A stretch of 48,745 nucleotides of DNA. It comes from a virus. Positions 779-34,937 of the stretch are shown here, piece by piece. How positions within the stretch are numbered: the stretch's first letter is position 1; each line of letters opens with the position of its first letter. The translations under genes were made by a program, and so were the position numbers. The notes below the pieces were generated by a model. It did not search any database. It was not told the origin of the DNA and was given only the letters and a program-made list of their open reading frames with translations. Location: IMG/VR virus record IMGVR_UViG_3300036046_000008. The stretch is one strand, 5' to 3'.

Positions 779-796
779 CTCGGTCCTTTCAAATAG

Positions 797-833
797 TAGG
801 GGGTCTCATTATATGCCCTGCAATTTTCGCGCG
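797..833 (-). promoter_or_regulatory. Conserved promoter-like element copy (TATAATGAGACCCCCTAC core)
   Basis: Minus strand reads CGCGCGAAAATTGCAGGGCATATAATGAGACCCCCTAC; abuts the tRNA 3' end and precedes gene 509..778. Confidence 0.6.
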
Positions 834-906
834 TGGGCCCCGTGGGACTCGAACCCACACCTTACGGATTAAAAGTCCGCTACTCTGCCAATTGAGCTAG
901 AGGCCC
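834..906 (-). tRNA. tRNA-Lys (anticodon UUU)
   Basis: Manual cloverleaf fold: 7-bp acceptor stem GGGCCTC/GGGGCCC, D-loop AATTGGCA, anticodon loop CTTTTAA, T-loop TTCGAGT, discriminator A; no encoded CCA. Confidence 0.85.
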
Positions 907-913
907 AAACCCC

Positions 914-2062
914 TTACAAATATGCCGAGCGACTAGACTCGTTGAAAGAACGCTTTCGCCGAAGCGCTTCGCGAATTGCCCGATCCAGAGGCGCCGCACT
1001 CATCAACGTGTAGTAATATAACTTCTCATGCTGTGAGTCAAGACGATCGATTCGTCCTTGCGCTTGCTTATACATGCGATACGAATAAGTAAGCGAATAA
1101 AAGCACATAGCGTTAGTCTCAGTGCAATTCCATCCTTCGGCCCCGGCCAGATACTGCACCAAATATACCCAGGAATCTGAGGTCGGGATGTCTTCATGAC
1201 GATGCCCGTTCCATTCCGCAACTGCTACATCTTCGGCAAGCTCCCGCAGGATCGCAAGCTCATAGTCAAAGTTGTAGAATATAACTAAACGGGGATGTTT
1301 TTCCAGCAAAGCCCTCACCGCAAGGAACCTTGTCTCGTCCGTATTCAAGACCTTTCTTGCTACGTAGAAGGTGTTGGAGATAGTCTCGATCGGTGCCTCT
1401 TTGAAGACGTCCCAACGATCCCGCCACACCTGAATATACTTCTCACGGTCGTATTGCACAGGTGTTTCAACGAACTCTCGGTCAAGATGCGATCGGTAAG
1501 TCATCCCCACAAGAATCTGCGCACGCAGCTTGTACAGTTTGGTAAGACCAACGTAGCGATCGACTTTAGGGAACTTGGTAAAAGTATTGTACACGGCATG
1601 TTGCCGGGTGAAATCCGTCTTGTTCTTGTAGAACCCATTTGCGATAAAGACCGGAACGTAATCCATCCATGTGTCGCCCGGCGTTGCCGACAACAAAATC
1701 CAAGGGTTGTCTTTGACGACCTTCAGAAACGCCTTGACCCAGGCCCCATACCCAACCAGTCGCTGTTCGTCCGCAATGAGAAATATACCCTCAGCATCCG
1801 TATATTTCGCCAAGTTCTGCCAACTGTCGACGGTCAACTCCGTTACTCCTACCAAAGCCGCCTCTCGTTCCCAGTCACCGCTGTCCCGCTTCTTCGCAGT
1901 GGTGATGACAAGCAGCTTACGGTCACTGTGGTTCCGCTGGTAATATACCAGAGCGGTCAACGTCTTGCCCGAACCCACAGGACCATACAGAATCTTGCCC
2001 GTCGACAACTTCGCGAGAGCCTCCTCCTGATGCGGATATAGCTTCACGTGTCCGAGGTCCAT
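914..2062 (-). CDS. ATP-dependent helicase (SF2-like)
   Basis: Track ORF 382 aa; Walker A GPVGSGKT, Walker B-like LIADEQ, helicase motif VI-like QGRIDR; start overlaps upstream gene by 19 nt. Confidence 0.6.
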   Translation of the reverse strand: MDLGHVKLYPHQEEALAKLSTGKILYGPVGSGKTLTALVYYQRNHSDRKLLVITTAKKRDSGDWEREAALVGVTELTVDSWQNLAKYTDAEGIFLIADEQRLVGYGAWVKAFLKVVKDNPWILLSATPGDTWMDYVPVFIANGFYKNKTDFTRQHAVYNTFTKFPKVDRYVGLTKLYKLRAQILVGMTYRSHLDREFVETPVQYDREKYIQVWRDRWDVFKEAPIETISNTFYVARKVLNTDETRFLAVRALLEKHPRLVIFYNFDYELAILRELAEDVAVAEWNGHRHEDIPTSDSWVYLVQYLAGAEGWNCTETNAMCFYSLTYSYRMYKQAQGRIDRLDSQHEKLYYYTLMSAAPLDRAIREALRRKRSFNESSRSAYL

Positions 2063-2460: not shown

Positions 2461-2895
2461 GACCGGCCAATAATATGGTAGATCCGCTGGCACCCCCGGC
2501 CACATCAGACTGTATCGACCTGGATCCTTCCGGATGAGATTGCTCTGATGCGAGCGATGAAATTCTTTGATCCCGTGCCACCACGGAACCTGGCGATCCG
2601 GGTATTCCTTTAGCATCTGTGTGAAATATGGCAGTAGAGAGTCTGCGTATCCACGGGTTCGCCAGACTCGGCAGGAGATCAGCCCATATGCGCAAAGCGA
2701 TCCCTCGTAGCCTTGCCACATGCGAGCTGCGGGATGCGTGCGCCACCCCTTAGTCTCCCCACGCAAAGCCTTGAGGATCTGCATCGTCTCGACCCGCTGC
2801 TTTCCAAGGCGTTTTTGGTCTAGACGTGTGAGTGATTCATAATAACCAATCTCAGGCAGAAAAGTGTTGACCATAAATATCTCCCTCCGAGGCAA
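2437..2895 (-). CDS. hypothetical protein
   Basis: Track ORF 152 aa; no motif recognised. Confidence 0.5.
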   Translation of the reverse strand: MPRREIFMVNTFLPEIGYYESLTRLDQKRLGKQRVETMQILKALRGETKGWRTHPAARMWQGYEGSLCAYGLISCRVWRTRGYADSLLPYFTQMLKEYPDRQVPWWHGIKEFHRSHQSNLIRKDPGRYSLMWPGVPADLPYYWPVSRESHVV

Positions 2896-2927
2896 AACTA
2901 AAACCCCTTGTGAGAGTTTTAGTTTTT
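2893..2927 (-). terminator. Terminator-like hairpin (conserved-loop family)
   Basis: Plus AAACTAAAAC-CCCTTGTGAGA-GTTTTAGTTT; between stop of 2938..3195 and start of 2437..2895. Confidence 0.45.
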
Positions 2928-2937
2928 GGCGTCGGCG

Positions 2938-3195
2938 CTACGGCTGCTTACCGTCTACCGCACGTTGGATAGCTCGAGCAATACGTAGAACTCGCATGTC
3001 ATCGTCCATCCAAGCTGCAGAGCTGTCCAAACCAAGTTCGCTAATTAACTCGACTTGCCCGCGCAAATACTCACGACGCATCAGTTGGTCAGCCGTGTGG
3101 TTCAAGGCACAATGCTCGTGCAGACAGATGTCTGTTAGGTCAACACCATCCCATGCACGAGCCGCTGCGTTGACTGCGTCTTGATACGAAACCAT
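2938..3195 (-). CDS. hypothetical protein
   Basis: Track ORF 2938..3303 trimmed to internal ATG with GGAG RBS, because upstream 36 codons overlap 3222..3434. Confidence 0.4.
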   Translation of the reverse strand: MVSYQDAVNAAARAWDGVDLTDICLHEHCALNHTADQLMRREYLRGQVELISELGLDSSAAWMDDDMRVLRIARAIQRAVDGKQP

Positions 3196-3221
3196 AGAAG
3201 TCTCCAAATATAGGTCGGTGA

Positions 3222-3434
3222 TTAGTGGCGAAAAATGGGGTCCAGAGAGAGGAGAACGAATTTGTGCCCTCTGGGTGTGACGTTGGTTCGAATTCCATCC
3301 CAAATAGTGCCTTTAGGCAGGGACAGCGCTCTTTCTGCTTCAGTCACGCTTGCGTAGAGAGTGTTGGTCGTCTTGTCATAGACCATACTCTTAACGCGCC
3401 TGTCAGTCGGATACGGGACGCGGTTTGATCTCAT
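3222..3434 (-). CDS. hypothetical protein
   Basis: Track ORF 70 aa; strong RBS GGAGGA before ATG. Confidence 0.5.
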   Translation of the reverse strand: MRSNRVPYPTDRRVKSMVYDKTTNTLYASVTEAERALSLPKGTIWDGIRTNVTPRGHKFVLLSLDPIFRH

Positions 3435-3447
3435 TAGGTCCTCCGAT

Positions 3448-3480
3448 TTCGTTACACAAGAAGGGGGTTGGTTTTATTCT
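3448..3480 (-). promoter_or_regulatory. Degenerate copy of promoter-like element
   Basis: Minus strand CGCGCAAAACAGAATAAAACCAACCCCCTTC upstream of 3222..3434; weaker match. Confidence 0.3.
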
Positions 3481-3683
3481 GTTTTGCGCGGAGCTGAATT
3501 TGTTTTAACAGGGCCCGGACGATAGCAAATTAAGACGACAACTGATCGAAGTTTGAGCAAATAACCGATACGACGCGTTCCGTCCCAAACCACGCCCGAA
3601 TACAGGTGAGGGTTGTTTGTTTGATAAATATCAATCGTCCGCCCCAAGAGATTTATGTACACCCAATTACGCTGTTTCCGCAT
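3474..3683 (-). CDS. hypothetical protein
   Basis: Track ORF 69 aa; AAGGAGA RBS. Confidence 0.35.
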   Translation of the reverse strand: MRKQRNWVYINLLGRTIDIYQTNNPHLYSGVVWDGTRRIGYLLKLRSVVVLICYRPGPVKTNSAPRKTE

Positions 3684-3948
3684 CTCCAGTCTCCTTAAGA
3701 ACGTCGATTTGATACCAGCGCCCTACCGAGAAGTCATACTTGGGAAACGCAATTGTCCGCGCGTCTTGCGTGCGCATTACAACGTGCATTGGTAGAATAT
3801 ACTCGATCACACCCTGATAGAGCTCGATACTTCCCTGATGCGGCTCGGGACCATCGGGCAGCCAGAGAGTGACTTGCAAGACTGTATTGTTCTTGGCCCA
3901 AATCGCGATTTGCTTATCCATGTCCACGGCGCTTCGGTCAAAGCTCAT
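3667..3948 (-). CDS. hypothetical protein
   Basis: Track ORF 3667..4005 trimmed to ATG at 3948 directly after upstream stop. Confidence 0.45.
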   Translation of the reverse strand: MSFDRSAVDMDKQIAIWAKNNTVLQVTLWLPDGPEPHQGSIELYQGVIEYILPMHVVMRTQDARTIAFPKYDFSVGRWYQIDVLKETGDAETA

Positions 3949-3949
3949 T

Positions 3950-4174
3950 TCAGATTCCCTCCGGTAACGAGATCTCTTCGGGCGTGATGATAACGAGACC
4001 GCCAATTATGCGATCCTTCGTATGGGGGCCAATTCGCAAAAAGTTCTGTTCCTCTTGCGTCAACAAGATATAGCGCAACCACGGGTTATTATCGCGCGCG
4101 GCTATCATCTTGGCGTAGATGGCGCGTCCTAACAATCTGTCAAGAATGATTCGTGTCGGGTCCGATGATTCCAC
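3950..4174 (-). CDS. hypothetical protein
   Basis: Track ORF 74 aa; GTG start with AGGTGAAG RBS. Confidence 0.45.
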   Translation of the reverse strand: MESSDPTRIILDRLLGRAIYAKMIAARDNNPWLRYILLTQEEQNFLRIGPHTKDRIIGGLVIITPEEISLPEGI

Positions 4175-4186
4175 GTCTTCACCTGT

Positions 4187-4438
4187 CTAGTTAAATTTGG
4201 GACGGATTTTACTTTGCTGGTCGGACAAATATCCGCGGTCGTTCGGTTTCTTGCCCGACGGTGTCACACGCACCCATTCGCCTCGGGCGATCATCTTCTC
4301 TTCGTCCTCGGTTGCTGGCCGACGTTTGATCACGGGACCGGCTGCGGTTCCAGCTCCGCCTTTTGTTCCGGGCCGACCTGTGAAAACGACTTCGGGTGTT
4401 CGCCGATTCTTGTACCAGATCAAATCGTGGGTGGACAC
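4187..4438 (-). CDS. hypothetical basic protein
   Basis: Track ORF 83 aa; GTG start 5 nt after GGTAGGAGG RBS; preferred over overlapping Arg-rich frame 4209..4490. Confidence 0.5.
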   Translation of the reverse strand: MSTHDLIWYKNRRTPEVVFTGRPGTKGGAGTAAGPVIKRRPATEDEEKMIARGEWVRVTPSGKKPNDRGYLSDQQSKIRPKFN

Positions 4439-4657
4439 AGCGCCTCCTACCGGATAATCGTGAATATAACCAGGATCCAGACCAAGACAATGAACGTGAT
4501 GACTAGCACGAATAGCAGGTCTTCCACATTTTGCTCTTTTCGCCGCAGGGGTTCCGGGCGCCTGTTGGTCGTTTAAGAGCCGCAGCTAGGTGCGAAACTT
4601 CTTCTGCGGATCCCCGACGAAAAATATAGACCATTGTTCAACGACTAAACAGTCGTT

Positions 4658-4690
4658 GTGGTCTCATTATAGACGATGTAAAATTCGCGA
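4658..4690 (-). promoter_or_regulatory. Conserved promoter-like element copy
   Basis: Minus strand TCGCGAATTTTACATCGTCTATAATGAGACCAC; adjacent perfect 8-bp hairpin at about 4638..4657; no ORF of 60 aa or more downstream. Confidence 0.5.
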
Positions 4691-4692
4691 GG

Positions 4693-4938
4693 CTAGCGCA
4701 TCTTTCTTACCGCCCGTCGAAACGCAACATACCGTTCCTCATGCTTTTCGCTCCACGTCCGTCGAACCGCAGACACGACTACCACGCCAACTCGGGTATA
4801 GCTTCGGGCAGCCCACTCGCAATTTTCCCATTCCGTCTGCCATGTCCGGCGCCATATCGGTTTTTCCCGTTGCACGCGGTAAATAGTAAGATCGGACAAG
4901 TCAACAAGATTACGCCAGAATCGTTTAACCCACATCAA
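4693..4938 (-). CDS. hypothetical protein
   Basis: Track ORF 81 aa; start overlaps upstream stop. Confidence 0.4.
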   Translation of the reverse strand: MMWVKRFWRNLVDLSDLTIYRVQREKPIWRRTWQTEWENCEWAARSYTRVGVVVVSAVRRTWSEKHEERYVAFRRAVRKMR

Positions 4939-5141
4939 CGACTGCGCCCCTGCAAAGTTAGGGCTTCTTGGCGGCCGGCCTCAATAGCGCGTTGGAACCA
5001 GACGGTTAGAGTTTTGTGGTCGGGGACACTCCCCTGAATGCGATCGCCAAAAACCGCGAGAAAATGAGTAGCCCAGTCGCTTGGGTCAGTGTTGAACTCA
5101 TCCATCATCGCCCACATTTTGCTTAGGTGCGACTCGCACAT
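4935..5141 (-). CDS. hypothetical protein (start uncertain)
   Basis: Track ORF 4935..5228 trimmed to first internal ATG; no clear RBS. Confidence 0.3.
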   Translation of the reverse strand: MCESHLSKMWAMMDEFNTDPSDWATHFLAVFGDRIQGSVPDHKTLTVWFQRAIEAGRQEALTLQGRSR

Positions 5142-5310
5142 AATGCTTGTTTGGAACGGCCCAGGTAACGCCGGCCGCAACGCCAAAAGCCACCACAGCT
5201 TGCAGGATCTCACTCCATAGCAGTCCATCGTCGACCAGCGGCACCAGATATGCGATGGCAGCGAACAAGCCCGATAGAAGGGCTTTTCTCGACTCGAGCA
5301 CCAAGTCCAT
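5098..5310 (-). CDS. hypothetical membrane protein
   Basis: Track ORF 5098..5328 starts at TTG; ATG at 5310 has AAAGGAG RBS; hydrophobic segments. Confidence 0.4.
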   Translation of the reverse strand: MDLVLESRKALLSGLFAAIAYLVPLVDDGLLWSEILQAVVAFGVAAGVTWAVPNKHYVRVAPKQNVGDDG

Positions 5311-5404
5311 GACTAATCTCCTTTGCAAGTAGAATATAGGGCGCTCTGTTGAGTCGTTTAAGATGAGCGGTACCGGCGCCGCTCCATCCCCTATCTTTCC
5401 TGTC

Positions 5405-5743
5405 TCAGCTAGTGTGACTGAAGACCTTGACTTCAGGCTCCGGATTGATGAGAACGAGCTCCTCGCCCAGATCAGTCACCGGCTCGAAGTTGCTCTCGAA
5501 TGCGCGAGTGGTATACACCTTGAAGCCTCGTCCCGCGTAGAGAACCCAGTCCCCAGCAAACGCTCGAGTCTGCCCCGTCGACAAGGGGCGCTGCACGTTC
5601 ACCTTGACGAACGGCGTCCTCGATGCGGTGTAACGCACCTCGCCATCGCACCAATCGGCGACATCCTCCAGGTTGTCCTCGGTGACCTGAACGGCCTCGA
5701 CCTCGAACGGCTTACGCTTGTACAGCTCCGGGCTGACACCCAT
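5405..5743 (-). CDS. hypothetical protein
   Basis: Track ORF 112 aa; strong RBS AGGAGA. Confidence 0.65.
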   Translation of the reverse strand: MGVSPELYKRKPFEVEAVQVTEDNLEDVADWCDGEVRYTASRTPFVKVNVQRPLSTGQTRAFAGDWVLYAGRGFKVYTTRAFESNFEPVTDLGEELVLINPEPEVKVFSHTS

Positions 5744-24470: not shown

Positions 24471-25085
24471 TCAAGCATTGAACAAGGAGACCACTTCCGC
24501 AACCGGCGGCAGTCTGGGATGAGCCTCGTCAGACCCATAGAGAATCTTTTCAATCTCGTAGATCTTGGAGGAGTTGGCTTCATTTGAGTCAACAAAAATA
24601 TGAGAGGAGGGACGAGCCCCAGCAATTGGCACTGGAGTGGTTCTAAATATAAAGGTAAACGGTTTCAAAGTGGGTGTAGCACTGATTGTTTCGTAAGACG
24701 TTGTTTCGATGGTCGCAACCACATTGTAGACAATATGAATCCGATACCCTTCGCCAGTGCGCGTACGATAACTGAATCCGAACACGGACGAAGGCGACTG
24801 ATCCCCCACGAAAGTACGACCGTCGCAAAGAGCCAGAATGTGATCCTCGAGCATGTAGGGATAAATATACGCGCCGACCTTAGCAGAGTAATCTGACAGA
24901 TCTTGTTCAACGTTGTAGCAAATCCCGTCAAAATATAGTGGGTTCCCTGGGACCGCCGCAACATCCTCTGTCAAGGACACCAAGCCGTTCCACTCGACAG
25001 ACTCATTGTTATCGAAAAACAAAACTCCCCGATCGATCCCGGATTCAAAAGTCCTAGGAAGAGTCTCCCAAGAGAGTCGTGTCAT
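24471..25085 (-). CDS. tail protein, member of 3-gene paralog family (major tail subunit candidate)
   Basis: 204 aa; shares W..YE.GVD.GV, FGFSYRT, GY.IH.VYN and LYG...P.LP blocks with 25094..25783 and 26365..27024; TAGGAGA RBS. Confidence 0.55.
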   Translation of the reverse strand: MTRLSWETLPRTFESGIDRGVLFFDNNESVEWNGLVSLTEDVAAVPGNPLYFDGICYNVEQDLSDYSAKVGAYIYPYMLEDHILALCDGRTFVGDQSPSSVFGFSYRTRTGEGYRIHIVYNVVATIETTSYETISATPTLKPFTFIFRTTPVPIAGARPSSHIFVDSNEANSSKIYEIEKILYGSDEAHPRLPPVAEVVSLFNA

Positions 25086-25093: not shown

Positions 25094-25783
25094 CTAACGC
25101 AACATCTCGATCAATTCAGAAGGCGCGGGAAGCTCGGGCTCAGTCTGGCTCGTTCCGTACAGAACATCCTCGACGTAAGCAAGTTTTTCGGGACTGACAC
25201 TTCGAGAAGAAACAACAAAGTAAGCCCCGGGTGCAAATATCCCCCGCTTCCGTCGATACGTATAATCGTCTTGAGGATCGAACCAAGTAAACTCATGCTT
25301 ATGATACGGAATTGTCAGCACCTGCCACTCTTTCAGAGTTGGCTCGGCAGAAGACGTCAATGTAGCATACACGGTCTCCGTCGAAAATGCTACCGCATTG
25401 TGGACGATATGAATTTTATAGCCGTAATCCTGACCGCGCGCCGCGTTTCCCACCAATGTGCGGAAAGAAAACCCAAAACGTTCTCGAGGCTGATGTGTTG
25501 CATATACCCCCGGGGCCAACTTGGCTAGACCGTCATAAGCAGCAAATCCAGCCGGGGCGGCATAGGCACCGATCCGCAGCTGGATGTCGGCACGATCGAA
25601 ATCCGTAGCAAATTTTTGTCCCTCAAAATACTTATCGGCTAGATTCTGGTTCGCGTTGATAGTATCAATCACCCGAAGGCCCGGCCATGCCACACCAGGC
25701 CCATCCGGAGGATAAAATACGCCGCGGTCGACGCCCAATTCATATGTCTTTTCATTTAACAACCCCCAAACTAACCGAGGCAT
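25094..25783 (-). CDS. tail protein, member of 3-gene paralog family
   Basis: 229 aa; same conserved blocks; GGAAGGAG RBS. Confidence 0.55.
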   Translation of the reverse strand: MPRLVWGLLNEKTYELGVDRGVFYPPDGPGVAWPGLRVIDTINANQNLADKYFEGQKFATDFDRADIQLRIGAYAAPAGFAAYDGLAKLAPGVYATHQPRERFGFSFRTLVGNAARGQDYGYKIHIVHNAVAFSTETVYATLTSSAEPTLKEWQVLTIPYHKHEFTWFDPQDDYTYRRKRGIFAPGAYFVVSSRSVSPEKLAYVEDVLYGTSQTEPELPAPSELIEMLR

Positions 25784-26364: not shown

Positions 26365-27024
26365 TTATGGTGTCACCAGGGTGATGACCTCATCCGGCAA
26401 GGGAAGCCGCGGCTCCTCCGGGACCACGTCGTCACCATAGAGAATTGCCTCGAGCTCGGCCAAGGCAGTGTCGTCTGTAGTCCGACTGTCAATCGTCAAA
26501 CTGGAGACTGGATTGTAACCAATCACGGGCACCGGAGTCGTACTAATCTCCCAACTGAAAGTAATAGCCTCTGGCGAATCATTTACGGTAGTATAGCTCT
26601 TCTCCGTCGGAGCCGCCAAGCACCCATAAACAAGATGCAGCTTGTAACCCAGAGCATTGTTCTCAAGGTCGTTACCCACGATCGTTCGATAAGACAGCCC
26701 AAACAAGCGGCGAGGTTGCTGGCCGAGGAACAAACCAGGAGTGGGCTCCGCCGAGCCATCACACTGAGCAAACTCGTCCGGGTAAGTAAAAGCTTCGATC
26801 GTGCACCCAAACTCCTCAGCAGAGATCAGGTTCAGATACTTGATGTTATCGGCATACTGAGCCGAAGCTTCAGCACCCGAAGGGGACTCAGTGACGGAAA
26901 CCAGCCCGTTCCAAGCGAACCCCGTGTCATACTCTCCTGCCGTCAGCAGATAGAGCACGCCATGGTCAACGCCGGTCTCATAGAACCTCTCTCCAGGCTG
27001 ATCCCAAGTCAGAAGCTGTGCCAT
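26365..27024 (-). CDS. tail protein, member of 3-gene paralog family (major tail subunit candidate)
   Basis: 219 aa; same conserved blocks; TAGGAGGAA RBS. Confidence 0.55.
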   Translation of the reverse strand: MAQLLTWDQPGERFYETGVDHGVLYLLTAGEYDTGFAWNGLVSVTESPSGAEASAQYADNIKYLNLISAEEFGCTIEAFTYPDEFAQCDGSAEPTPGLFLGQQPRRLFGLSYRTIVGNDLENNALGYKLHLVYGCLAAPTEKSYTTVNDSPEAITFSWEISTTPVPVIGYNPVSSLTIDSRTTDDTALAELEAILYGDDVVPEEPRLPLPDEVITLVTP

Positions 27025-27350: not shown

Positions 27351-27648
27351 CTCCGAGCCTAAGAAGAAGGCGGGGGCTTTGAACTTCGACCTCTGTCACA
27401 GTCCACTTAGCCCCCGCCCACTCCACGTAACGGATGGCAAAGAAGTGTTCAAATGCGTAAGGATCGGCAAGAATACTAATCGAGTTCGTTACCGAAATAT
27501 CATTGTTGAGGTATTGGCCCACGTCAGACCGTTTCACATTTCGAACAACGTCTCCAAAATATAGCCGCTCAACAATCTGATCTACCCAAACGCCGGGGGC
27601 CGTCTGGACGTTTTGCCCGTAACCGACAACCCCAGAAAACTTTGCCAT
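27325..27648 (-). CDS. head-tail connector-like protein
   Basis: 107 aa, immediately after capsid gene; GAGGAG RBS. Confidence 0.5.
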   Translation of the reverse strand: MAKFSGVVGYGQNVQTAPGVWVDQIVERLYFGDVVRNVKRSDVGQYLNNDISVTNSISILADPYAFEHFFAIRYVEWAGAKWTVTEVEVQSPRLLLRLGGVYNGPTA

Positions 27649-27669
27649 CTCAGCTCCTCAAAATATAAA

Positions 27670-29625
27670 TCAGCTTCCGGTCGGGCGGAGGTAGCTCCAC
27701 TGAGTACGACTGCCCGGCGCCACGTAGTAGCCATCGCCAGCCACGGCATAGACCGTCAGAACCTCCCCAGCGTCAAGAACCTGAGCGCCCGTGAGCTCGT
27801 CACCGTTGGAGTCCTGGTAAACCACGCCGGTCTGCGTCGGAATCGTCACCGTGTAGGTAGAGCTGTCCCACGTCGGAGCGTTTGGCTTCACCTCGTCATC
27901 GGCTGCTCCGGAGTTGCGCACAACCAGAGCCGAATGCGGCTTGTTCAGAGCGCCACACAGCCGCGCCTCGATGAGATACTTGTACTGGTTGTAATCAATA
28001 TCAAAGTCATCGAAGAGACTCGTCTGGCCGCCTCGATCGGCGCCAATAACATAGTCCGTAAGATTGACGACAACGCCAACCAGCGACGGATCAGACTCGA
28101 ACGCCTCCACCTCGACAATGTTAGCGACGCGCATCGCGGTAGCCGCCTCAGCAACGGTCTTGTAAAGGCGCTTCCCGTCGCCGTCTTTAACCAGCATGAT
28201 CTCGGAAAGGACAGTCTCAGAGGTGTAGAATGTTGGCGTACCACTGCCCTTATAGAGACGACGGGCCCGAACCAAGGCGTCAACCAGCTCCTCGTACGAG
28301 GAGTCAGCGTCACCAAGGTTGACCGTCACAGGCACTGCGAAGAACGGGTGGTCTTTCGCAATGGGACGAATATGAGTCTCGAGAATCTTGTCCTCGTCGC
28401 CCGGGTCACGCCCGTCACCAATAAAGATGGCGCGGGCAATCTCCTCCTCGAGCATCAGACGCATCTCGCCCTTCATGAACGCGACAACGTCCAGGTCCAC
28501 AATATCAATCACGTCATCGCGATCGAGCTTCTGCTTCTTATAGACGGTTTGGGGAGTGGTGACGCGGCGCGAGAGCGAGAAAAACTCTTCCTTCTTCATC
28601 GTCCCCTTGACGTAGCCCTTCGCACGAGCCTCGTCAAACTTCAGATCGGCGCTCACGGACTTAATCCGAGAGAAGGGACTCTTCCGAACCCCAGACATCA
28701 CGCCCGAAACCCACTCGGTCCGACGGGAATCAAGCTGAATCTCGCCGACCATCTTGGCGTCTGGGAACAACACGTCGAGATTCTCCACACCGTGCTGCAG
28801 AGCGTAGTTCTCGAACGCGGTACGAAGCGACCCGACGCGCTGAGCGTCTGCCACAATTGCCTGAAGATCACTGTGCGAAAGAACTGGGCCCGACGAGGGC
28901 GTGGAGTCCTGCTCGAAAACGTTACGGGTCATTTCGGTGTCACCTTCCATGTGAGAATGTGTAAGCTGGTCTTGCTCTTCGCTGTCTGCCGACTGGGCCA
29001 CATTGTCGGACTCTTCGGCTGCCTGCTCAAGCGCCGCCCCCACCATATAATGCAGGACATCCTTCTGCTCTTGAGTCATTGAGTCATAAACATCCTGAAT
29101 AGTGAGCTCCTTCTCGGAGCCACTCTCGGTTTTCTCCACGTGTGCAACCTCCGGGTTCAAAGACTCGTGTTCGAGAAGTAGTCCAGTGTAGATGACGGCC
29201 TCGTCTTCCAAATGTTCAATCTCACCGTCCGCGTGGGCAACGGCTACATAATCGATAAGGGCTCCGGGATTGGCGCCGGACAGGACCAGACTGACCTCAG
29301 TAATGGCGCCGTGCAAAACCTGCTTCGCTCGCTCGACTAGGCGATTTGCATAGATAGACATGCGGGTAATATCACCGTGCTGCACCAAAGTCTTAGCATT
29401 CAAACCAGATGGGCTTGAATTAAAGAAACCATACGCGTACATGCCATCGTCACGAGCTTCGAGAATTGCATGTCCCAAAACATTCTCAGGGGACTTATGG
29501 CCATGCTGCCAAACTAGCGGCACGCGATGCCCATCCATGTGCTTGAAAGCATCAGGCGTAATGACTCGGCCGTCGGAGCACTTGAGACCCGCCTTCGTGG
29601 CGTAACCGCTGAAATCAGCTTCCAT
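27670..29625 (-). CDS. prohead protease (HK97 family, U35-like) fused to HK97-fold major capsid protein
   Basis: About 651 aa; N-terminal VPLVWQHGH...LGHAIL protease-like block, acidic linker, capsid-like C-terminal half; ATG with GGAAGGAGA RBS. Confidence 0.6.
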   Translation of the reverse strand: MEADFSGYATKAGLKCSDGRVITPDAFKHMDGHRVPLVWQHGHKSPENVLGHAILEARDDGMYAYGFFNSSPSGLNAKTLVQHGDITRMSIYANRLVERAKQVLHGAITEVSLVLSGANPGALIDYVAVAHADGEIEHLEDEAVIYTGLLLEHESLNPEVAHVEKTESGSEKELTIQDVYDSMTQEQKDVLHYMVGAALEQAAEESDNVAQSADSEEQDQLTHSHMEGDTEMTRNVFEQDSTPSSGPVLSHSDLQAIVADAQRVGSLRTAFENYALQHGVENLDVLFPDAKMVGEIQLDSRRTEWVSGVMSGVRKSPFSRIKSVSADLKFDEARAKGYVKGTMKKEEFFSLSRRVTTPQTVYKKQKLDRDDVIDIVDLDVVAFMKGEMRLMLEEEIARAIFIGDGRDPGDEDKILETHIRPIAKDHPFFAVPVTVNLGDADSSYEELVDALVRARRLYKGSGTPTFYTSETVLSEIMLVKDGDGKRLYKTVAEAATAMRVANIVEVEAFESDPSLVGVVVNLTDYVIGADRGGQTSLFDDFDIDYNQYKYLIEARLCGALNKPHSALVVRNSGAADDEVKPNAPTWDSSTYTVTIPTQTGVVYQDSNGDELTGAQVLDAGEVLTVYAVAGDGYYVAPGSRTQWSYLRPTGS

Positions 29626-29702
29626 TTTGACTGTCTCCTTCCTGGTTAGTGTCAACGGCCTGGAGTGCCGTTTCGGATTTGATAAGACTCATTAGAACCC
29701 CT

Positions 29703-30278
29703 CTAATCACTAGGTTGCTGAGCTTTTCTCTCTCGCCGTTGGGCAGACTTTCTCTTGGCCGTTTCTAACGCCTCTTTAATTTTAACTCTCGTCTCCGCAA
29801 TTTTGCGTTCCAACTCGAGAAGTTCTTGGGAAGGGTTGGTTTTCTGTTCTTTCTCTCGAGCTTCCTTGGCCCGCTCGGCGGCTTCTTTCTTTTCCCGAGG
29901 AGTCAATTTCTCTGCTTTATCTTTAGGCGTGTTTGCGGGTTTCTTTGGCGAGGGCTTAACTTTTTCCGGGTCCTGACCCGACCGCAGTTTAGCTTCAGCA
30001 ACTAGTTTTTTTAGAACCTCATCTAAACGGGCAAGTTTTGTTTCCAAGCGCTTAATCTGCGCCTCAACGGCTTCCCTACGAACTCTGGACGCCTCCTGTC
30101 GCGCCTTCAAGTCTGATTTAAATGTTGATTGACCGCGATCTTTCGGACCCGACGGCTCGTTAGATCGCCCCGTCTTTCGCCCCTTTAACTCGCGGGTCCG
30201 TAGATAGTACTCTCGGCTTTTTTGTGGGTCATACGGCCGATCGGCATGAGCTAGGATAAATGCTTGGGCGTCGAGCAT
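29703..30278 (-). CDS. scaffolding-like protein (highly charged coiled coil)
   Basis: 191 aa, K/E/R-rich, between portal and capsid. Confidence 0.45.
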   Translation of the reverse strand: MLDAQAFILAHADRPYDPQKSREYYLRTRELKGRKTGRSNEPSGPKDRGQSTFKSDLKARQEASRVRREAVEAQIKRLETKLARLDEVLKKLVAEAKLRSGQDPEKVKPSPKKPANTPKDKAEKLTPREKKEAAERAKEAREKEQKTNPSQELLELERKIAETRVKIKEALETAKRKSAQRRERKAQQPSD

Positions 30279-30284
30279 GACAGT

Positions 30285-31577
30285 TTATCCTCCGAACTCT
30301 GCCAGTGCTGAGTCCAACGTCCCTTCGAGCGCAGCCAAAGCCGCATCGACTTCGTCCGCCTCAACATCCCCGCTTGAGGGCACCTCATCTGCGTGAGGCA
30401 TGTTACTGTTTCGGAGTTGATCCGCCTTCGGATCGAGGGCTGGACGCATTCCCAAGAGCTGCCGCACTTCATTCGACGTCAGGATCTCGTTTCGAGTGAA
30501 CTTATCGGCGAGTTCGGCCATAAGACTCACCGGAACGAGGCGGAACGGACTTGTGAAGGCCATGACAAGCTGTTTTTGTGATCGCGCGGTCTTTGTGAGG
30601 AAGGCCCGAGACATAGCTTCAGTAATCGCGGCGAGCACGGGTTCAATCGTCCGATTCATATAGTTCGTCATAGTCTTCTCGTCCGCTGTGCCATTCATCA
30701 CACTATCATTAATACCGAGCTGAGTATACAGAAGTTTTGTCAGGTACTCGACTTGTTCGAGCAAATTATTCTCAACCGGGCGATTCAACTGAACTACTTT
30801 TTCAGTGGCGTCAGTATAGGCGATTCCGTACTGGCTACGGCGCAACTGAAACTCAATATCAGTTCGACGTTGCTCCGCCTGCTGGCGCCGAGCTTCTGAC
30901 TTGATGACGTAGGGCAGTTGAATAAGCAGATCCAACTTTCCGGAACTGAACTCTTTGTCAACCGTATCCAACATGCCCAATTTCAGGATCAGTCGCTGTA
31001 AGGTGGAATTTGGTTCATTCATTACTGAATATAGCGGATTTTCAACAATTGCAACCATCCGCTTGGCTAGAACGATATCTTCCCGTCGGCCAATCTTTTC
31101 GTTATAAAGCCGGACCTGGACGTGCTCCGGGTACCAAGAAAGAATCTCACCGACCCGCAAGTTACGAATATCATAGCCACCGGTTTCGTTAGGGCTCACC
31201 GATGTTTCAACCGGAACGACCGCCGCGACACCTTTATCAAAAAGTGTAAGAGCAATGTCCTGCCGGAGCGCTCGCGCGGCTTGATCAATGTTGGCTTCAT
31301 GCCTTAGACAATAATTGAGACCGCTGTCAATCTCTTCCACAAATCGATCGTCATGATCCAAGCGCACATGTCGAATGGGATACGCCGCTACATCGACACT
31401 CATTTGCGTCAAGATAGACGAAAGCAAAGATCGCTCGTTTGCTACTACAATTCGTGTCCGATCCGGTCGCAGACTACTATACGAAACGGACACTGGCTGC
31501 TCGTATGCAGGAGGTTCCTCTGGTCTCCCGTTAAACGCATTCCATGCGTGTTTGAGTTTACTAGAAATAAGCGCCAT
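30285..31577 (-). CDS. portal protein (candidate)
   Basis: 430 aa; position between terminase and scaffold/capsid; acidic C-terminus. Confidence 0.5.
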   Translation of the reverse strand: MALISSKLKHAWNAFNGRPEEPPAYEQPVSVSYSSLRPDRTRIVVANERSLLSSILTQMSVDVAAYPIRHVRLDHDDRFVEEIDSGLNYCLRHEANIDQAARALRQDIALTLFDKGVAAVVPVETSVSPNETGGYDIRNLRVGEILSWYPEHVQVRLYNEKIGRREDIVLAKRMVAIVENPLYSVMNEPNSTLQRLILKLGMLDTVDKEFSSGKLDLLIQLPYVIKSEARRQQAEQRRTDIEFQLRRSQYGIAYTDATEKVVQLNRPVENNLLEQVEYLTKLLYTQLGINDSVMNGTADEKTMTNYMNRTIEPVLAAITEAMSRAFLTKTARSQKQLVMAFTSPFRLVPVSLMAELADKFTRNEILTSNEVRQLLGMRPALDPKADQLRNSNMPHADEVPSSGDVEADEVDAALAALEGTLDSALAEFGG

Positions 31578-31616: not shown

Positions 31617-32489
31617 TTACCGTCTGGGCCGAGTTGCACCAACCACAAACAGCGCGGCCCCCGCCCCTAGAAGCCATTTTTCGCCTGTTGTACGTCTCTG
31701 AGCAATTTTGAGTTCGGGCGAATTAGCAAATTCCTTGGCGTCACGACGCAAAATGCGGAAGGCCTCTTTTCTCCCGCCAGTAACTAGCGATTTATAAAAA
31801 TTCAATTCGTTCCGAAGAGACCGAACTTGATACGCTTGGACTGTTTTCCGGGCAGCCAAAATTTCGGCGTCCCGAGCCTGTCTCCTTTGCGCACGAGTCG
31901 GGCCGGATGGGCCGCTAGATGACGCTCGATCCTTTCTCACGCCCCAGCGCATTCCTTTGACCCCGTAATGCGCGAGCTCTTCTGAAAAACGTTGGGCCTC
32001 ATTTGCCGACGGTTCAGAATCCATGCCAAGTCCTTTCGTCAAGGTAAACAGAGGTTCATACCTAAATTTTCGATTGGAGATTTCTGTTAAACTTTCGCCC
32101 CTGGCCATTCCTTTAACGCCGTAATGAGCCAATGAGCTATCCGACAGACTCCGCACGGATTCAGGTACAGGCTGAACCATCTGCTCATAAAGCTTCACAA
32201 GCGTTCGCGCCGCTTTTGTTTTCTCGTCTTTCGTCGCCTGCAAAGGCGCACGAGCTCCTGCAAGTGCAGCCGCAGCCGCAAATATTGCGTTCTTATTCAG
32301 CACGCCGCTGGGCGTCTTCACTGGCAGCTTGCATTGGGCTTTGGAGCGCAATTCATTCCGAGCCGGACGAATCAAACACGCCTCATACCATTGCTCTAGA
32401 GTGTAATCAGACGGCGAATATCTGATCCAGGGGGGTAGTGTCCACCAACTTTCCTCCTTACGCAATAGCAATAGACCATCCCGTGCCAT
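31617..32489 (-). CDS. head-module protein with two LAHYGVKGM(R)WG motifs and C-terminal TM (start uncertain)
   Basis: Track ORF 31617..32597; N-terminal 36 codons look non-coding and overlap 32458..33195; motif repeated at aa about 158 and 193 of track ORF. Confidence 0.45.
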   Translation of the reverse strand: MARDGLLLLRKEESWWTLPPWIRYSPSDYTLEQWYEACLIRPARNELRSKAQCKLPVKTPSGVLNKNAIFAAAAALAGARAPLQATKDEKTKAARTLVKLYEQMVQPVPESVRSLSDSSLAHYGVKGMARGESLTEISNRKFRYEPLFTLTKGLGMDSEPSANEAQRFSEELAHYGVKGMRWGVRKDRASSSGPSGPTRAQRRQARDAEILAARKTVQAYQVRSLRNELNFYKSLVTGGRKEAFRILRRDAKEFANSPELKIAQRRTTGEKWLLGAGAALFVVGATRPRR

Positions 32490-33195
32490 TACCTGACGAA
32501 GCCGACCAGGTGACACTAGCAGCGGGAATTGTTCCGGCAGAGGAAATAGGCGCCTGCGCGGCAACCGCATGGGCGCTCGATCCAGACGACGCGGCAAGAG
32601 CCTGATTTATTAAGGTGTGACCGGCTGGCAGAGTAACGGACGTCGACTTATTGTCTTTGCGAACCCAAAGTCTAACCAACAGCCCTTCGCCGTCGGCCGT
32701 GACCGCTGGGGCGGGCGCTACCGTGTTCGTATCTGGCTGGTTTTGGGTAGATCGAACAAACGACGTCAGGTTACGCACAGCCACGCAAACGTGGCTACAT
32801 TTTCGACTAGCAGAAAGAGACCAAGACGGCATCTCAAGGCCGTCAAAATATGTTGCTACATAAAGCGCTCTTTGGGTGGTCCCCTGGTTTGAAAGCAAAT
32901 TATCCTCAGTCCAATCCGAATGGTCGGACGTTACGGTCACACCACCCGAAGAATCAGATACTGACATCCCGCACACCAACCAGTCTCCATCCTGCAGACC
33001 GGAAGGAAGATCGGGGGTATAAGATGTTAAAAAGTTTGTGGCAGACGCAGACGAGCCTACAACGATAGGCTCGGTAGGAGGCTCCGGCTCTTCGCCGCTC
33101 TCATAAATAAGATTAGTCCCCACATAAGCCTTTAGAAGAGGAGAAGTTCCCGCGTACATTGCGGTCACACTCGAACTACCAGCACGAACAGTCAT
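32458..33195 (-). CDS. hypothetical Ser/Thr-rich protein
   Basis: 245 aa; ATGA overlap with terminase stop. Confidence 0.5.
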   Translation of the reverse strand: MTVRAGSSSVTAMYAGTSPLLKAYVGTNLIYESGEEPEPPTEPIVVGSSASATNFLTSYTPDLPSGLQDGDWLVCGMSVSDSSGGVTVTSDHSDWTEDNLLSNQGTTQRALYVATYFDGLEMPSWSLSASRKCSHVCVAVRNLTSFVRSTQNQPDTNTVAPAPAVTADGEGLLVRLWVRKDNKSTSVTLPAGHTLINQALAASSGSSAHAVAAQAPISSAGTIPAASVTWSASSGNGTGWSIAIA

Positions 33196-34937
33196 TCGAA
33201 CAACCCCTTATGAACTTTGTAAGCTACGTAGGCATCCAGCAAGGCCGAGAAATTATCGATTTTTGCATCTTTTCGCTTCTTGTAGAGCTTGCGATTGCCG
33301 TTCGTGTCTTCCAATGTTACCGCATTGCCCATCGCAAACGACATCAGTAACTCATCAAATATAAGCAATCGCTCATCCGCAAGATTTCGTAACTCGCCAA
33401 GCGGAACTGATTCGGTACGGACGCCCTGCGGAACTTTCTCCACACCAAACGGACCATTTTCTGAGATCCATCGATCAATGAACTCTTTCGCATTATACGG
33501 GTCATACCCTACCGCCCGAATATCGTAGTCTTGAGCGGCAATAAACTCATCGAGGTCTTCATAAACTTCCATCAGATCAAGAACCGCTCCATCTAAAACA
33601 TGGAGACTACCCTCAGAAATAAACTCGTCGTACTTCAGACGCATTGCCGCTGGAAGCTTCATCATTGTTAAAGAGGTAATATAACTACGAGTCTTGACGC
33701 CCCACGAACCATCCCGTAACGGGAATAAAAACGTAAAAGCACAGAAATCGTCGCCTTGGGAAAGATCGACGCCCATACTACAGGCCATCTTCCAGAAAGT
33801 CCGCGACGAATGCGGCAACGTCTGTTCGTAAGTGAAGAAGTAAGTGAACCCCTCCATGGGAATACCAAAACGCTTCGCTAAAATATCGTTTCGAGCAGCG
33901 GGCACCTTTTCAGCTCGCTCTACATCCAAATGATACGTGTCATAGCTTACCGTGATGCCAAGATTGGGGTTAGCTTTTACCCAAAGCTCCGGGTGATTTA
34001 CCTCGTCGAGAGTATCAAGTTTATAATGCCAAATCGAAACATGAGGCGCATAATACTCCCCTTTGAGAATTGATGCAAGTTCAAGCTTAACAGTGTCGCC
34101 CGAGCCGTTCCGCACCGTTCCTTCAGAACTAATCGCAACGATAACATAATCGTCAATTTTAGACGCACCTTGCTCCAGCGCCCCGATAATATCTTCGCGC
34201 AAATCGCCGGACAACCACTCGTCAATTGTATTAACTTTCGATCGAAGCCCTTGAACTTTATCAATGGTCATCGGGCGAATCTCGAGAAGCGAACCCGTCA
34301 AGAAATTCTCGATCCCGCGTTTGGTTGCGACGAGTTTCTGTCTGAGAGCACGATTACCAGTAGTGTTCTGAAGCGAGCCCTCGGTCAAAAACTTGAACAA
34401 AGGGCCACGGGCCCGAACAATGGACGTACGGATAGGAGACAAGACCTCTTCGGCTTGTTTCATCGTAAGCGCAGTTGTCACTTGATGCGTAGTGGTTGGG
34501 TCCACATTTAAAAAATAACTTTGAATGACGGAGGCGTACATAGACTTGGCTGCGCCCCGCGCCACGATCAAATACTGTTTATTTGTCAAGCGTTTCTTGA
34601 TAACCTTATGAACATAGTGACCGCCGCGCCCGTCTTCGTTAGGCTGATAGACGGTGCGATCCACAAAATAATACCATCCTAGTAACTGTTCAACCCAAAC
34701 TTTAAAAGAAAGCATAAGCCACAAATTACGCCCATCAGTCAGAGTCAGTTCATTCTCGCAATAACGAATAAAGCCCTCGACCGGCCCGTCGTCGTAATAA
34801 ATATTAGGGTTTGCAATAAGCTCGTCAATCCGGTTCATCTCAAGCGAAATTTCCCGATTCACAGGGATCTCGCCTCGGAGCACCGCGGATCTAAATTCAT
34901 CATAATATACGGGAACCGCAGTATTAGACAAGCTCAT
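33192..34937 (-). CDS. terminase large subunit
   Basis: 581 aa; N-terminal ATPase-like region (LIVARGAAKS) and C-terminal nuclease-like region; AGGTGGTGA RBS. Confidence 0.75.
   Translation of the reverse strand: MSLSNTAVPVYYDEFRSAVLRGEIPVNREISLEMNRIDELIANPNIYYDDGPVEGFIRYCENELTLTDGRNLWLMLSFKVWVEQLLGWYYFVDRTVYQPNEDGRGGHYVHKVIKKRLTNKQYLIVARGAAKSMYASVIQSYFLNVDPTTTHQVTTALTMKQAEEVLSPIRTSIVRARGPLFKFLTEGSLQNTTGNRALRQKLVATKRGIENFLTGSLLEIRPMTIDKVQGLRSKVNTIDEWLSGDLREDIIGALEQGASKIDDYVIVAISSEGTVRNGSGDTVKLELASILKGEYYAPHVSIWHYKLDTLDEVNHPELWVKANPNLGITVSYDTYHLDVERAEKVPAARNDILAKRFGIPMEGFTYFFTYEQTLPHSSRTFWKMACSMGVDLSQGDDFCAFTFLFPLRDGSWGVKTRSYITSLTMMKLPAAMRLKYDEFISEGSLHVLDGAVLDLMEVYEDLDEFIAAQDYDIRAVGYDPYNAKEFIDRWISENGPFGVEKVPQGVRTESVPLGELRNLADERLLIFDELLMSFAMGNAVTLEDTNGNRKLYKKRKDAKIDNFSALLDAYVAYKVHKGLFE

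Follow-up and report, generated by a model that had tools for sequence, protein, structure and literature searches.

Several viruses use nested in-frame genes for head assembly, among them phage lambda (C/Nu3), phage Mu (I/Z) and herpes simplex virus (UL26/UL26.5). In these pairs the long product has a maturation protease at its N-terminus, and the shorter product, presumably the more abundant one, shares its C-terminus. The shared C-terminal part is the scaffold, and it brings the protease into the procapsid. In herpesvirus, the short product is made from an internal promoter. HK97 uses two genes, one for the protease (gp4) and one for the capsid protein (gp5), and its protease is recruited non-covalently. 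The N-terminal delta domain of gp5 faces inward and is removed by the protease.

Klyczek et al. 2017 (PMC5513430) described fusions of a protease with a capsid protein, as did the Giantsbane preprint (10.1101/2020.01.10.891226), and the fusion gene is treated as one product in annotations and in the literature (PMC5513430; 10.1101/2020.01.10.891226). Culturable phages carrying relatives of the gene studied here infect Arthrobacter, Gordonia, Streptomyces, Rhodococcus or Lactococcus.

The window, meaning the whole stretch of DNA analysed, is an entire metagenomic contig of 48.7 kb, and the region under study is the head-assembly core of a siphovirus genome. Genes follow each other in the order terminase, portal, (small gene), fusion, DUF7253 protein, tail terminator, paralogous major tail proteins and tape measure; from terminase to tail tube, by way of portal, (small gene), fusion, DUF7253 protein and tail terminator, this order is conserved in relatives. 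A nucleotide search of the region against phage genomes gave no match, so the contig represents a new phage at the DNA level. [quoted passage not shown] It differs in coming from an uncultured new member and in carrying a single linker helix module, compared with at least three in some relatives. Compared with HK97, protease family, catalytic residues and capsid fold are the same, but the protease is covalently attached upstream of a linker, and no similarity is detectable between the delta domain and the linker helix.

The protease-capsid fusion gene

An earlier note, made on this DNA from its letters and open reading frames, had described a protease-capsid fusion with an acidic linker in 27670..29625 and a highly charged helical neighbour in 29703..30278. 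Both ORFs were found at these positions, on the minus strand, and the strings VPLVWQHGH and LGHAIL that it had quoted are present in the translation of the first one. The features of the fusion gene are as follows.

27670..29625, minus strand: protease-capsid fusion ORF, 651 aa, 71.4 kDa, from the ORF listing
29637..29642, minus strand: SD sequence GGAAGG of the annotated fusion start (ATG at 29625, spacer of 11 nt)
29176..29625, minus strand: HK97-type (S78-like) prohead serine protease domain, residues ~1-150, from Pfam, NCBIfam and PHROG matches
28933..29175, minus strand: acidic linker, residues 151-231, net charge -19
29011..29106, minus strand: amphipathic helix module (TIQDVYDSMTQEQKDVLHYMVGAALEQA) of the linker, residues ~174-205, a conserved alignment block
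27916..28779, minus strand: HK97-fold capsid core, residues ~283-570, PF05065, pLDDT 80-94
27673..27903, minus strand: C-terminal all-beta domain, residues ~575-651, beta strands at pLDDT 84-92

From N- to C-terminus, the protein consists of an HK97-type prohead protease, the acidic linker, an HK97-fold major capsid protein and a small C-terminal beta domain. The stop-to-stop ORF also permits a TTG start at 29655; ATG 29625, with GGAAGGAG placed 11 nt upstream, is probably the true start for that reason.

The N-terminal part matched Peptidase_S78 (PF04586, residues 5-127, E 5.8e-4, 20.5 bits against a cut-off of 21), TIGR01543 proheadase_HK97 (E 1.4e-7, 31.7 bits against a cut-off of 59) and PHROG 80 "head maturation protease" (E 1.2e-12). 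The match is real, yet it falls under the curated Pfam and NCBIfam cut-offs, and we therefore consider the domain a divergent member. In the profile of the family N-terminus, His41 aligns with His65 of HK97 gp4 and Ser90 with Ser114, which we take to be the catalytic residues of gp4. His41 and Ser90 are invariant in 45 homologues and are the candidate catalytic residues of the fusion protease, as placed by this alignment. As regards a herpesvirus-protease-like fold, pLDDT in the AlphaFold model is 60-77 for residues 20-90 and below 50 for residues 94-174; half of the protease domain is poorly modelled, and a fold search (Foldseek) with the fusion was dominated by the capsid domain, so that the structure does not confirm the protease fold. 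A computational attempt to find a cleavage site in the fusion did not locate one.

Within and around the linker, two stretches with pLDDT below 50 (residues 134-174 and 206-245) flank a helix modelled at residues 176-205 with a pLDDT of ~80. This helix module is present in one copy here and as tandem repeats in some relatives, with several copies in phage Qui and about three in Teacup and Sporto.

The capsid part scored above the cut-off of Phage_capsid PF05065 (residues 328-567, 25.2 bits against 24.2) and slightly under that of TIGR01554 (E 2.8e-5). It is modelled at pLDDT 80-94 across residues 300-650, and the model establishes the capsid fold: phi29 gp8, Gordonia phage Cozz, the HK97 prohead, a GTA capsid and encapsulin shells were all matched by Foldseek at a probability of 1.00 (E about 1e-8 to 1e-7), among 229 matches at E ≤ 0.001. 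A sequence search of the fusion against the PDB returned one weak capsid match only (9sz9, E 0.0044). The C-terminal all-beta domain had no Pfam match, and it is missing or replaced in some homologues, whose matches end near residue 569. Phi29 gp8, the best fold match, also bears a C-terminal Ig-like domain, and judging from the model the all-beta domain is probably an outward-facing decoration domain. With a protease profile match at the N-terminus, PF05065 at the C-terminus and a linker of net charge -19, the fusion is organised as the earlier note had described it.

The gene belongs to a large family. Residues 2-606 of 651 align to positions 4-601 of the 603 of PHROG 3270 (E 4.5e-238), full-length homologues occur in 244 phage records, and coverage reaches 99-100% against proteins of Streptomyces, Rhodococcus, Gordonia and Arthrobacter phages. 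Of at least 8000 metagenomic protein clusters, each of the best 120 has the single-ORF fusion at full length.

A long ORF of this kind could in principle result from an assembly or sequencing error fusing separate protease and capsid genes, and a sequencing frameshift was the check that had been proposed for this locus. Two relatives have an organisation that fits such a reading. In the Streptococcus prophage Javan400, a distant homologue (26% identity over residues 5-487), the protease (Javan400_0016) and the capsid protein with a coiled-coil N-terminal extension (Javan400_0015) are in the same reading frame, but are split into two genes by a single stop codon that directly follows the protease domain; the Javan400 capsid gene retains the whole helical linker, whereas the internal start described below sits after the linker. 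In relative L122, protease and capsid are in different frames. Against an error stand the 244 independently sequenced phage genomes and at least 8000 protein clusters with the fusion, its uninterrupted ORF in 89 of 90 further loci, and the identical protein on 4 contigs from two sources. Because the one-ORF architecture recurs full-length in the phage records and metagenomic clusters, a frameshift artefact is excluded, and we give this reading practically no credence; the breadth of independent full-length homologues already refutes it. The fusion is typical of its large protease-capsid family, which already has a name, and is neither new nor an artefact. An antisense ORF (27613..29082, plus strand, 489 aa) was without credible family match and was regarded as spurious.

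A conserved, predicted internal start in the fusion gene

The most interesting feature of the gene, absent from the earlier note, is a conserved internal ribosome-binding site and apparent start between the linker and the capsid part.

28943..28948, minus strand: internal SD sequence GGAAGG, 10 nt upstream of the Met232 codon, under synonymous-site constraint in homologues
28930..28932, minus strand: predicted internal start ATG (Met232), the aligned codon being ATG, GTG or TTG in 162/162 homologues
27670..28932, minus strand: capsid protein alone as the predicted nested product, 420 aa, 46.2 kDa, from the conserved SD and start codon

The predicted product is in frame with the full-length protein, and the C-terminus is common to both. 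The codon aligned with Met232 was scored in 162 homologues of 36-72% identity and a GC content of 0.32-0.62, which share descent, so that the counts at this site are not independent events. It is ATG in 140 of them, GTG in 21 and TTG in 1. When the residue is valine, the codon is always GTG (21/21), a triplet making up 17-19% of the valine codons of these genes. An SD-like motif lies 7-10 nt upstream: in a first set of 84 genes GAAGG was found in 69 and any SD-like motif in 82, and such a motif was likewise present in 96/98 further loci and in 71/71 genome/MAG loci.

This conservation is visible at synonymous positions of the RNA. The Glu227 codon is GAA in 68/71 genes (96%), versus 33% gene-wide and 7-68% at 15 other conserved Glu columns, and the Gly228 codon is GGA in 63%, versus 0-37% at 28 other conserved Gly columns. 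Peptide variants over the SD (KD, EED, KET, SKGG, EGG) still encode an SD-like RNA. The motif itself is GGAAGGA in actinophage-like genes but AAAGGAGG or GAAGGAG in those of low GC, AAGGAGG replacing GGAAGGA in low-GC relatives. Predicted pairing with the 3′ tail of 16S rRNA reaches -9.6 and -11.1 kcal/mol in two sets of genes; annotated starts give -10.2, and random codons about -3 (p 1e-45 and 6e-43). In 55/84 and 49/71 genes, the site pairs more strongly than any other of the roughly 24 in-frame internal ATG/GTG codons. Local RNA structure is weaker there (-7.0 versus -11.7 kcal/mol, p 1.5e-14). In the window, the GGAAGG hexamer also precedes, with the same spacing, the starts of the portal (31577), the fusion and a tail-tube paralogue (25783).

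An acidic, glycine-containing linker is written in purine-rich codons, which favour SD-like strings by chance. Such an origin was rejected on sequence evidence: the synonymous-codon test argues against it, and so does a control within the purine-rich linker, where the internal site still had the strongest pairing in 99/155 genes. An internal promoter in the style of herpesvirus UL26.5 was also considered and rejected, the region having no promoter-like or terminator-like site on the minus strand. Disorder is predicted for the stretch around the Met232 site (residues 206-245). The residues that follow it (N235, F237 and V/I/L at 236) are conserved as protein, and conservation near Met232 is therefore partly at the peptide level. 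In L122, which has two separate genes, the TGA of the protease ORF overlaps an ATG (ATGA) exactly at the position of Met232, a split that could be a 1-nt assembly error. Full-text searches of the literature turned up neither a description of an internal start in such fusion genes nor proteomic or ribosome-profiling data showing two products with a common C-terminus. We conclude that the conserved ribosome-binding site and start suggest that the gene also yields a protease-free capsid protein.

The small basic protein upstream of the fusion

The gene between portal and fusion begins 6 nt after the portal gene.

29703..30278, minus strand: small basic helical protein, 191 aa, 22 kDa, pI 10.1, net charge +19, matching PHROG 12541
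30174..30239, minus strand: motif conserved at the N-terminus of the small protein (PYDPQKSREYYLRTRELKGRK), residues 14-35

As the earlier note had it, this neighbour is highly charged and helical: 45% of its residues are charged (K29, R23, E24, D9), and the prediction is helical throughout, with a central helix of 48 residues (53-100) and a C-terminal hairpin (127-187) in a model that looks elongated (pTM 0.27). In the N-terminal motif, which phage homologues have too, Y16, D17, K20, E23, Y24, Y25, T28, L31, K32, G33 and R34 are invariant in 13 homologues. All homologues examined are basic, with net charges from +15 to +37. The two PHROG families matched, 12541 and 11413, are both of unknown function. 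Pfam gave a sub-threshold Prefoldin_2 match only, sequence and profile searches of the PDB gave generic coiled coils only, Foldseek gave nothing below E = 7, and no enzymatic, DNA-binding or other family domain was found in Pfam or NCBIfam.

The small gene was detected by tblastn in 137 of 265 phage records carrying the fusion. It occupies the corresponding place in Kardashian, FortCran, GoCrazy, ReqiPepy6, Qui and Daddyjeff, and is absent from Scap1, Teacup, Sporto and P118, which have the fusion. The portal directly abuts the fusion, without small gene, in 43/74 viral-contig relatives and 61/65 genome/MAG relatives. The combination of a fusion with a separate charged gene had been called uncommon, which is not supported, many relatives having the small gene at the same place. 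The locus as first described is ordinary for its lineage; the apparent internal start is what is new. The linker is somewhat more acidic in the presence of the small gene (-25 with it, -20 without it, p 0.004). Neither linker length nor helix repeats were greater where the small gene is absent (median length 121 versus 130 residues), and there is therefore no sign of compensation.

What the small protein does was considered from these data. The earlier note had called it a scaffold; its place next to the capsid gene, its helical and elongated form and the lack of an enzymatic domain agree with that label, but it has no scaffold-family match and is missing from most relatives, and the protein is at most a putative scaffold. 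Acting in that way for this capsid, it would occupy the procapsid interior, attach to the shell by charge and exit or be degraded at maturation. A gene in the head module immediately upstream of the capsid gene, a long central helix with a C-terminal helical hairpin, and a positive charge complementing the acidic linker and the capsid protein, with the linker more acidic alongside it, would all fit, and we retain this as a tentative possibility. Against it, however, no homology to scaffold families was seen by sequence or by fold, most relatives with the same capsid-protease gene and gene order lack the small gene without having a longer linker, the correlation of charges may merely reflect shared ancestry, and a net charge of +19 is equally compatible with a DNA-binding or packaged internal protein. 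The latter reading, in which the small protein is packaged in the head, or associated with DNA or the portal, and is not an assembly scaffold, agrees with its pI and the basic character of its homologues, with its position just after the portal gene and with its optional presence in the fusion family, accessory internal proteins being often optional. No DNA-binding domain or other family match was found in it, however, and we consider this reading unlikely. Judging from sequence and distribution, this capsid family does not require the small protein as a scaffold; the protein appears as an optional, lineage-restricted accessory of the head module; it most likely acts as a charge-driven assembly helper, which would bind the acidic linker or the inner surface of the shell.

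A proposed nested gene pair, or a polyprotein

The explanation that we consider quite probable, given the sequence comparisons, is that the fusion gene is a predicted nested gene pair and not an obligate polyprotein, the small basic protein being a lineage-restricted accessory. The inferred pair consists of a protease-capsid protein of 71 kDa and a capsid protein of 46 kDa. Initiation at ATG 29625 would produce the former, with its protease (His41/Ser90), acidic linker with the conserved helix and HK97-fold capsid protein, and initiation at the internal GGAAGG (28948..28943) and ATG 28932 would produce the capsid protein alone. Long and short products would co-assemble through their common capsid domain, and protease and linker would therefore be tethered inside the procapsid, like the HK97 delta domain. 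The ratio of the two initiation rates would set the dose of protease in the procapsid. After assembly, the protease would cut itself and the linker off. Against this reading, a majority of capsid protein free of linker would leave the scaffolding of the shell unexplained in the many relatives without the small gene.

The current annotation and description of the family (PMC5513430; 10.1101/2020.01.10.891226) imply instead an obligate polyprotein. The gene would make the 651-aa protein only, and each capsid subunit would carry its own protease and linker, removed after assembly; the conserved (Q/K)EG..M peptide would be a protein-level signal, for instance a cleavage site, or the SD-like string would merely slow ribosomes. 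The unbroken ORF in the further loci and the protein-level conservation of N235, F237 and V/I/L at 236 are in keeping with this. A peptide signal, however, fails to account for a valine that is GTG in every case when 17-19% is expected, or for a sole leucine encoded by TTG, and it leaves the excess of GAA at Glu227 unaccounted for. Moreover, the peptide upstream is free to vary, yet the RNA stays complementary to the 16S tail, with a motif that tracks genome GC. We regard the obligate polyprotein as rather unlikely.

Returning to the nested pair, the locus resembles lambda C/Nu3 in having a conserved in-frame internal start with its own ribosome-binding site, whose pairing equals that of annotated starts. 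The predicted shared part, however, is the capsid protein itself and not a scaffold as in lambda C/Nu3, Mu I/Z and UL26/UL26.5: the shorter product is a predicted HK97-fold capsid protein. The locus would therefore work like the lambda C/Nu3 class without being a strict member of it. It differs also from the herpesvirus pair, where an internal promoter is used, in having an internal ribosome-binding site, from which two products are predicted only.

Extending this further, we think it on balance probable that tailed phages' widespread "capsid-protease fusion" genes are not simple polyproteins but two-product nested genes. Most capsid protein would be made protease-free, from an internal ribosome-binding site, and a minority of full-length chains would bring protease and scaffold-like linker into the shell as an N-terminal extension, covalently joined to an otherwise ordinary capsid subunit. 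Use of the internal start would mean that one gene product is missing from hundreds of annotated phage genomes and from thousands of metagenomic genes, and that the accepted description of this capsid family, with one polyprotein per subunit, is wrong. The protease-to-capsid ratio would be settable by two translation starts in one ORF, and the principle of lambda C/Nu3 and herpesvirus UL26/UL26.5 would reach beyond scaffolds to the capsid protein itself. Carriage of the protease on a capsid subunit would be a third way of delivering it, next to docking without a covalent bond (HK97) and the nesting of protease and scaffold (lambda, Mu and herpesviruses).

A similar arrangement may exist elsewhere. 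In the Microbacterium cluster EE phages, which are small siphoviruses (Anseraureola gp5, Efeko gp6), a protease is likewise fused upstream of the capsid protein, but no significant similarity to the capsid part studied here was found. An SD-like motif followed by ATG is present just past the protease domain in 2/2 sequences (GAGAGGA...ATG and CAGGAGGA...ATG), a comparison of two sequences only and hence a lead and not a result; the peptide differs, and the candidate start precedes a coiled-coil segment, unlike the start at Met232. Because these unrelated fusions show an SD and an ATG at the junction, the nested two-product design may have arisen more than once.

Head-tail gene order and the fusion gene family

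In this region all genes lie on the minus strand, in the following order:

33192..34937 (-), terminase, first in gene order, followed by two small genes
30285..31577 (-), portal
29703..30278 (-), charged protein of 191 aa, between portal and fusion
27670..29625 (-), fusion ORF of 651 aa, followed by a DUF7253 protein, the tail terminator, three paralogous tail-tube-like genes and the tape measure
26365..27024 (-), tail-tube-like gene
25094..25783 (-), tail-tube-like gene
24471..25085 (-), tail-tube-like gene

Both ORFs on which the earlier note had commented, the 651-aa fusion and its charged 191-aa neighbour, are present. A protein identical to the 651-aa product is recorded from a JGI contig of 48,745 bases, which makes the window a complete metagenomic contig. 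The fusion probably starts at the ATG at 29625, which has GGAAGGAG 11 nt upstream; read from stop to stop, the ORF would also permit a TTG start at 29655. The N-terminus matched HK97-type prohead protease profiles PF04586 (E 5.8e-4) and TIGR01543 (E 1.4e-7), both with scores below the curated cut-offs, as well as PHROG 80 (E 1.2e-12). Using a profile of the family N-terminus, His41 and Ser90 aligned with His65 and Ser114 of HK97 gp4, and both residues were invariant among 45 homologues. The C-terminal part scored above the Pfam Phage_capsid cut-off, and its structure model (pLDDT 80-94) matched HK97-fold shells of the PDB, including phi29 gp8, Gordonia phage Cozz, HK97, GTA and encapsulins. 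Between the two lies an acidic linker (residues 151-231, net charge -19) with one conserved amphipathic helix (residues 176-205). A small beta domain at residues ~575-651 is missing from some homologues. The whole ORF matched PHROG 3270 from end to end (E 4.5e-238). The gene is almost certainly a protease-capsid fusion, as the earlier note had proposed, and belongs to a known family; a sequencing frameshift joining two genes, which that note had named as one refuting case, was excluded.

Full-length fusions were detected by tblastn in 244 phage records, with hosts among Arthrobacter, Gordonia, Streptomyces, Rhodococcus, Curtobacterium, Microbacterium and Lactococcus, and a metagenomic protein search returned at least 8000 clusters of relatives. 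The fusion and a duplicated tail protein have already been noted (PMC5513430; 10.1101/2020.01.10.891226), and the present locus is a new, uncultured member of this family. Compared to the duplicated major tail protein described for relatives, the tail-tube-like gene appears to be present in three copies in the window. Their N-termini are alike; the product of 26365..27024 matched PHROG 2645, 'major tail protein' (E 2e-103), and is 31% identical to that of 25094..25783 (E 2e-29).

Two other ORFs of the region deserve mention. Upstream from the portal, a 326-aa protein (31617..32597, minus strand) carries two copies of a 25-residue DUF7211 motif (HYGVKGMxxG...). As listed from a TTG, it overlaps the preceding 245-aa ORF (32458..33195, minus strand) by 140 nt, and its true start is therefore uncertain. 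Antisense to the capsid gene runs a 489-aa ORF (27613..29082, plus strand) with no credible family match, which probably just reflects the codon composition of the other strand.

The charged neighbour of the fusion gene

The 191-aa protein is 45% charged and strongly basic (pI 10.1, net charge +19), and its predicted structure is all-helical, the central helix spanning 48 residues and the C-terminus forming a helical hairpin. Its homologues are all basic (net +15 to +37), and their N-termini share a sharply conserved motif, YDPxKxxEYYxRTxxLKGR. Searches against Pfam, NCBIfam, PHROG, PDB sequences and PDB profiles, and a fold search, yielded no homologue with a known function. The gene sits between portal and fusion in phages Kardashian, FortCran, GoCrazy, ReqiPepy6, Qui and Daddyjeff; with this and the wide occurrence of the fusion, the combination is not uncommon, contrary to the earlier note. 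In Gordonia phage FortCran the small gene is gene 18 and the fusion gene 19, in ReqiPepy6 the small gene is gp023, and in Arthrobacter phage GoCrazy the fusion is gene 11. In Scap1, Teacup, Sporto and P118 the portal adjoins the fusion directly, as it does in 43 of 74 relatives on viral contigs and 61 of 65 in genomes or MAGs. We looked for a longer linker where the small gene is missing and found none; the linker is slightly more acidic in relatives that have the gene. In the record of Lactococcus phage P118, the gene at the portal position directly upstream of the fusion (2650..3945) is called 'tail length tape-measure protein', probably a mis-annotation.

The scaffold function proposed in the earlier note is an unproven, if reasonable, guess given the position and shape of the protein. 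Yet many relatives carry the fusion without the small gene; the protein is thus a lineage-restricted accessory, and this capsid family does not depend on it as a scaffold. A basic internal protein packaged in the head is about as possible as a scaffold.

A putative translation start inside the fusion gene

In the alignment of homologues, one methionine, Met232 (codon at 28932..28930), is invariant within a disordered stretch that otherwise varies. The window has GGAAGGTGACACCGAA-ATG at this codon, and GGAAGGAGACAGTCAAA-ATG at the fusion's own start. Homologous DNA was collected from 83 viral contigs and phages, 7 more, divergent isolated phages, and 71 genome or MAG loci with a GC content of 0.32 to 0.62. 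The codon aligned with Met232 was ATG in 140 sequences, GTG in 21 and TTG in 1 (162 sequences, 7 of which needed a one-codon alignment shift). Valine at this position was always encoded by GTG, compared to 17-19% of the valine codons in these genes.

A GAAGG sequence, mostly 7-10 nt upstream of the codon, was found in 69 of 84 genes of the first set, and some Shine-Dalgarno (SD)-like motif in 82 of them; the genome/MAG set had such a motif in all 71 loci, and a further group of 98 loci had one in 96. GAA encodes Glu227 in 96% of cases; its share is 33% gene-wide and ranges from 7 to 68% over 15 other columns of conserved Glu. For Gly228, GGA is used in 63%, compared to 0-37% over 28 other columns of conserved Gly. 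This codon usage indicates that the motif is held at synonymous positions. The peptide upstream of Met232 varies between relatives while the RNA stays SD-like; low-GC genes have AAAGGAGG or GAAGGAG where actinophage-like genes have GGAAGGA.

At the site, the 16S 3′ tail is predicted to pair with -9.6 and -11.1 kcal/mol in two sets, as strongly as at annotated starts (-10.2) and far more strongly than at codons picked at random (about -3; p 1e-45 and 6e-43). By pairing strength, the site ranked first among in-frame internal ATG and GTG codons in 55 of 84 genes of one set and 49 of 71 of the other; among sites of the purine-rich linker it ranked first in 99 of 155 genes. RNA folding around this position is weaker. 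In the window, the portal, fusion and tail-tube starts are preceded by the same hexamer as the internal site, with equal spacing. The simplest reading of these sequence features is that the site is a functional translation start, which we consider rather probable. Full-text literature searches retrieved no earlier mention of an internal start for such fusion genes; as far as we found, its conservation in the fusion family is unreported.

Predicted nested products

Use of both starts would yield two in-frame products with a common C-terminus: a protein of 71 kDa that comprises protease, linker and capsid, and a capsid protein of 46 kDa. By analogy with known nested genes, the longer product may co-assemble through its capsid domain and would thereby bring protease and linker into the shell, in an amount governed by the rates of initiation at the two starts. 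The protease would then release itself by cleavage. Nested in-frame products sharing a C-terminus are known for lambda C/Nu3, Mu I/Z and herpesvirus UL26/UL26.5. In these systems the shared part is the scaffold, whereas here it is predicted to be the capsid protein. If the internal start is used, the family would extend the principle of nested protease and assembly genes in a new form.

Natural variants of the junction

In viral contig IMGVR_UViG_3300037827_000002 (around 5538), the protease-linker and capsid parts are separate genes. At precisely the Met232 equivalent, the TGA of the first overlaps the ATG of the second (ATGA), and AAAGGAGGA lies upstream. Either the fusion has split naturally here or the contig contains a 1-nt assembly error. 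In the distant Streptococcus prophage Javan400, the protease gene (3941..4474) and the capsid gene (4475..5740) share a reading frame, and just one stop codon, right behind the protease domain, lies between them. The capsid gene begins at once behind this stop, and its product retains a long coiled-coil extension at the N-terminus. Such an arrangement suggests how the fusion may have arisen.

Independent fusion families also exist in clusters AN, EE and CF and in Rhodococcus phage RRH1. Two capsid-protease fusions of cluster EE, which is an unrelated family, likewise have an ATG with an SD-like motif right behind the protease domain, with a different peptide. With two sequences, we take this as a lead only:

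Microbacterium phage Anseraureola, 3807..5393, GAGAGGAcacccccaacATG
Efeko, 101..1690, CAGGAGGAcaacaccATG

The linker helix module (TVKDVFDSMSEKQKNVVYFMIGEALE), present once in the window, is repeated in tandem at three loci:

Arthrobacter phage Qui, 2486..4918, several copies
Teacup, 2495..4654, about three copies
Sporto, 2501..4657, about three copies

Immediately ahead of the last repeat, all three carry another SD-like motif with an ATG (in Teacup at codon 242, gaagggggcacc-ATG), which hints at a possible third nested product.
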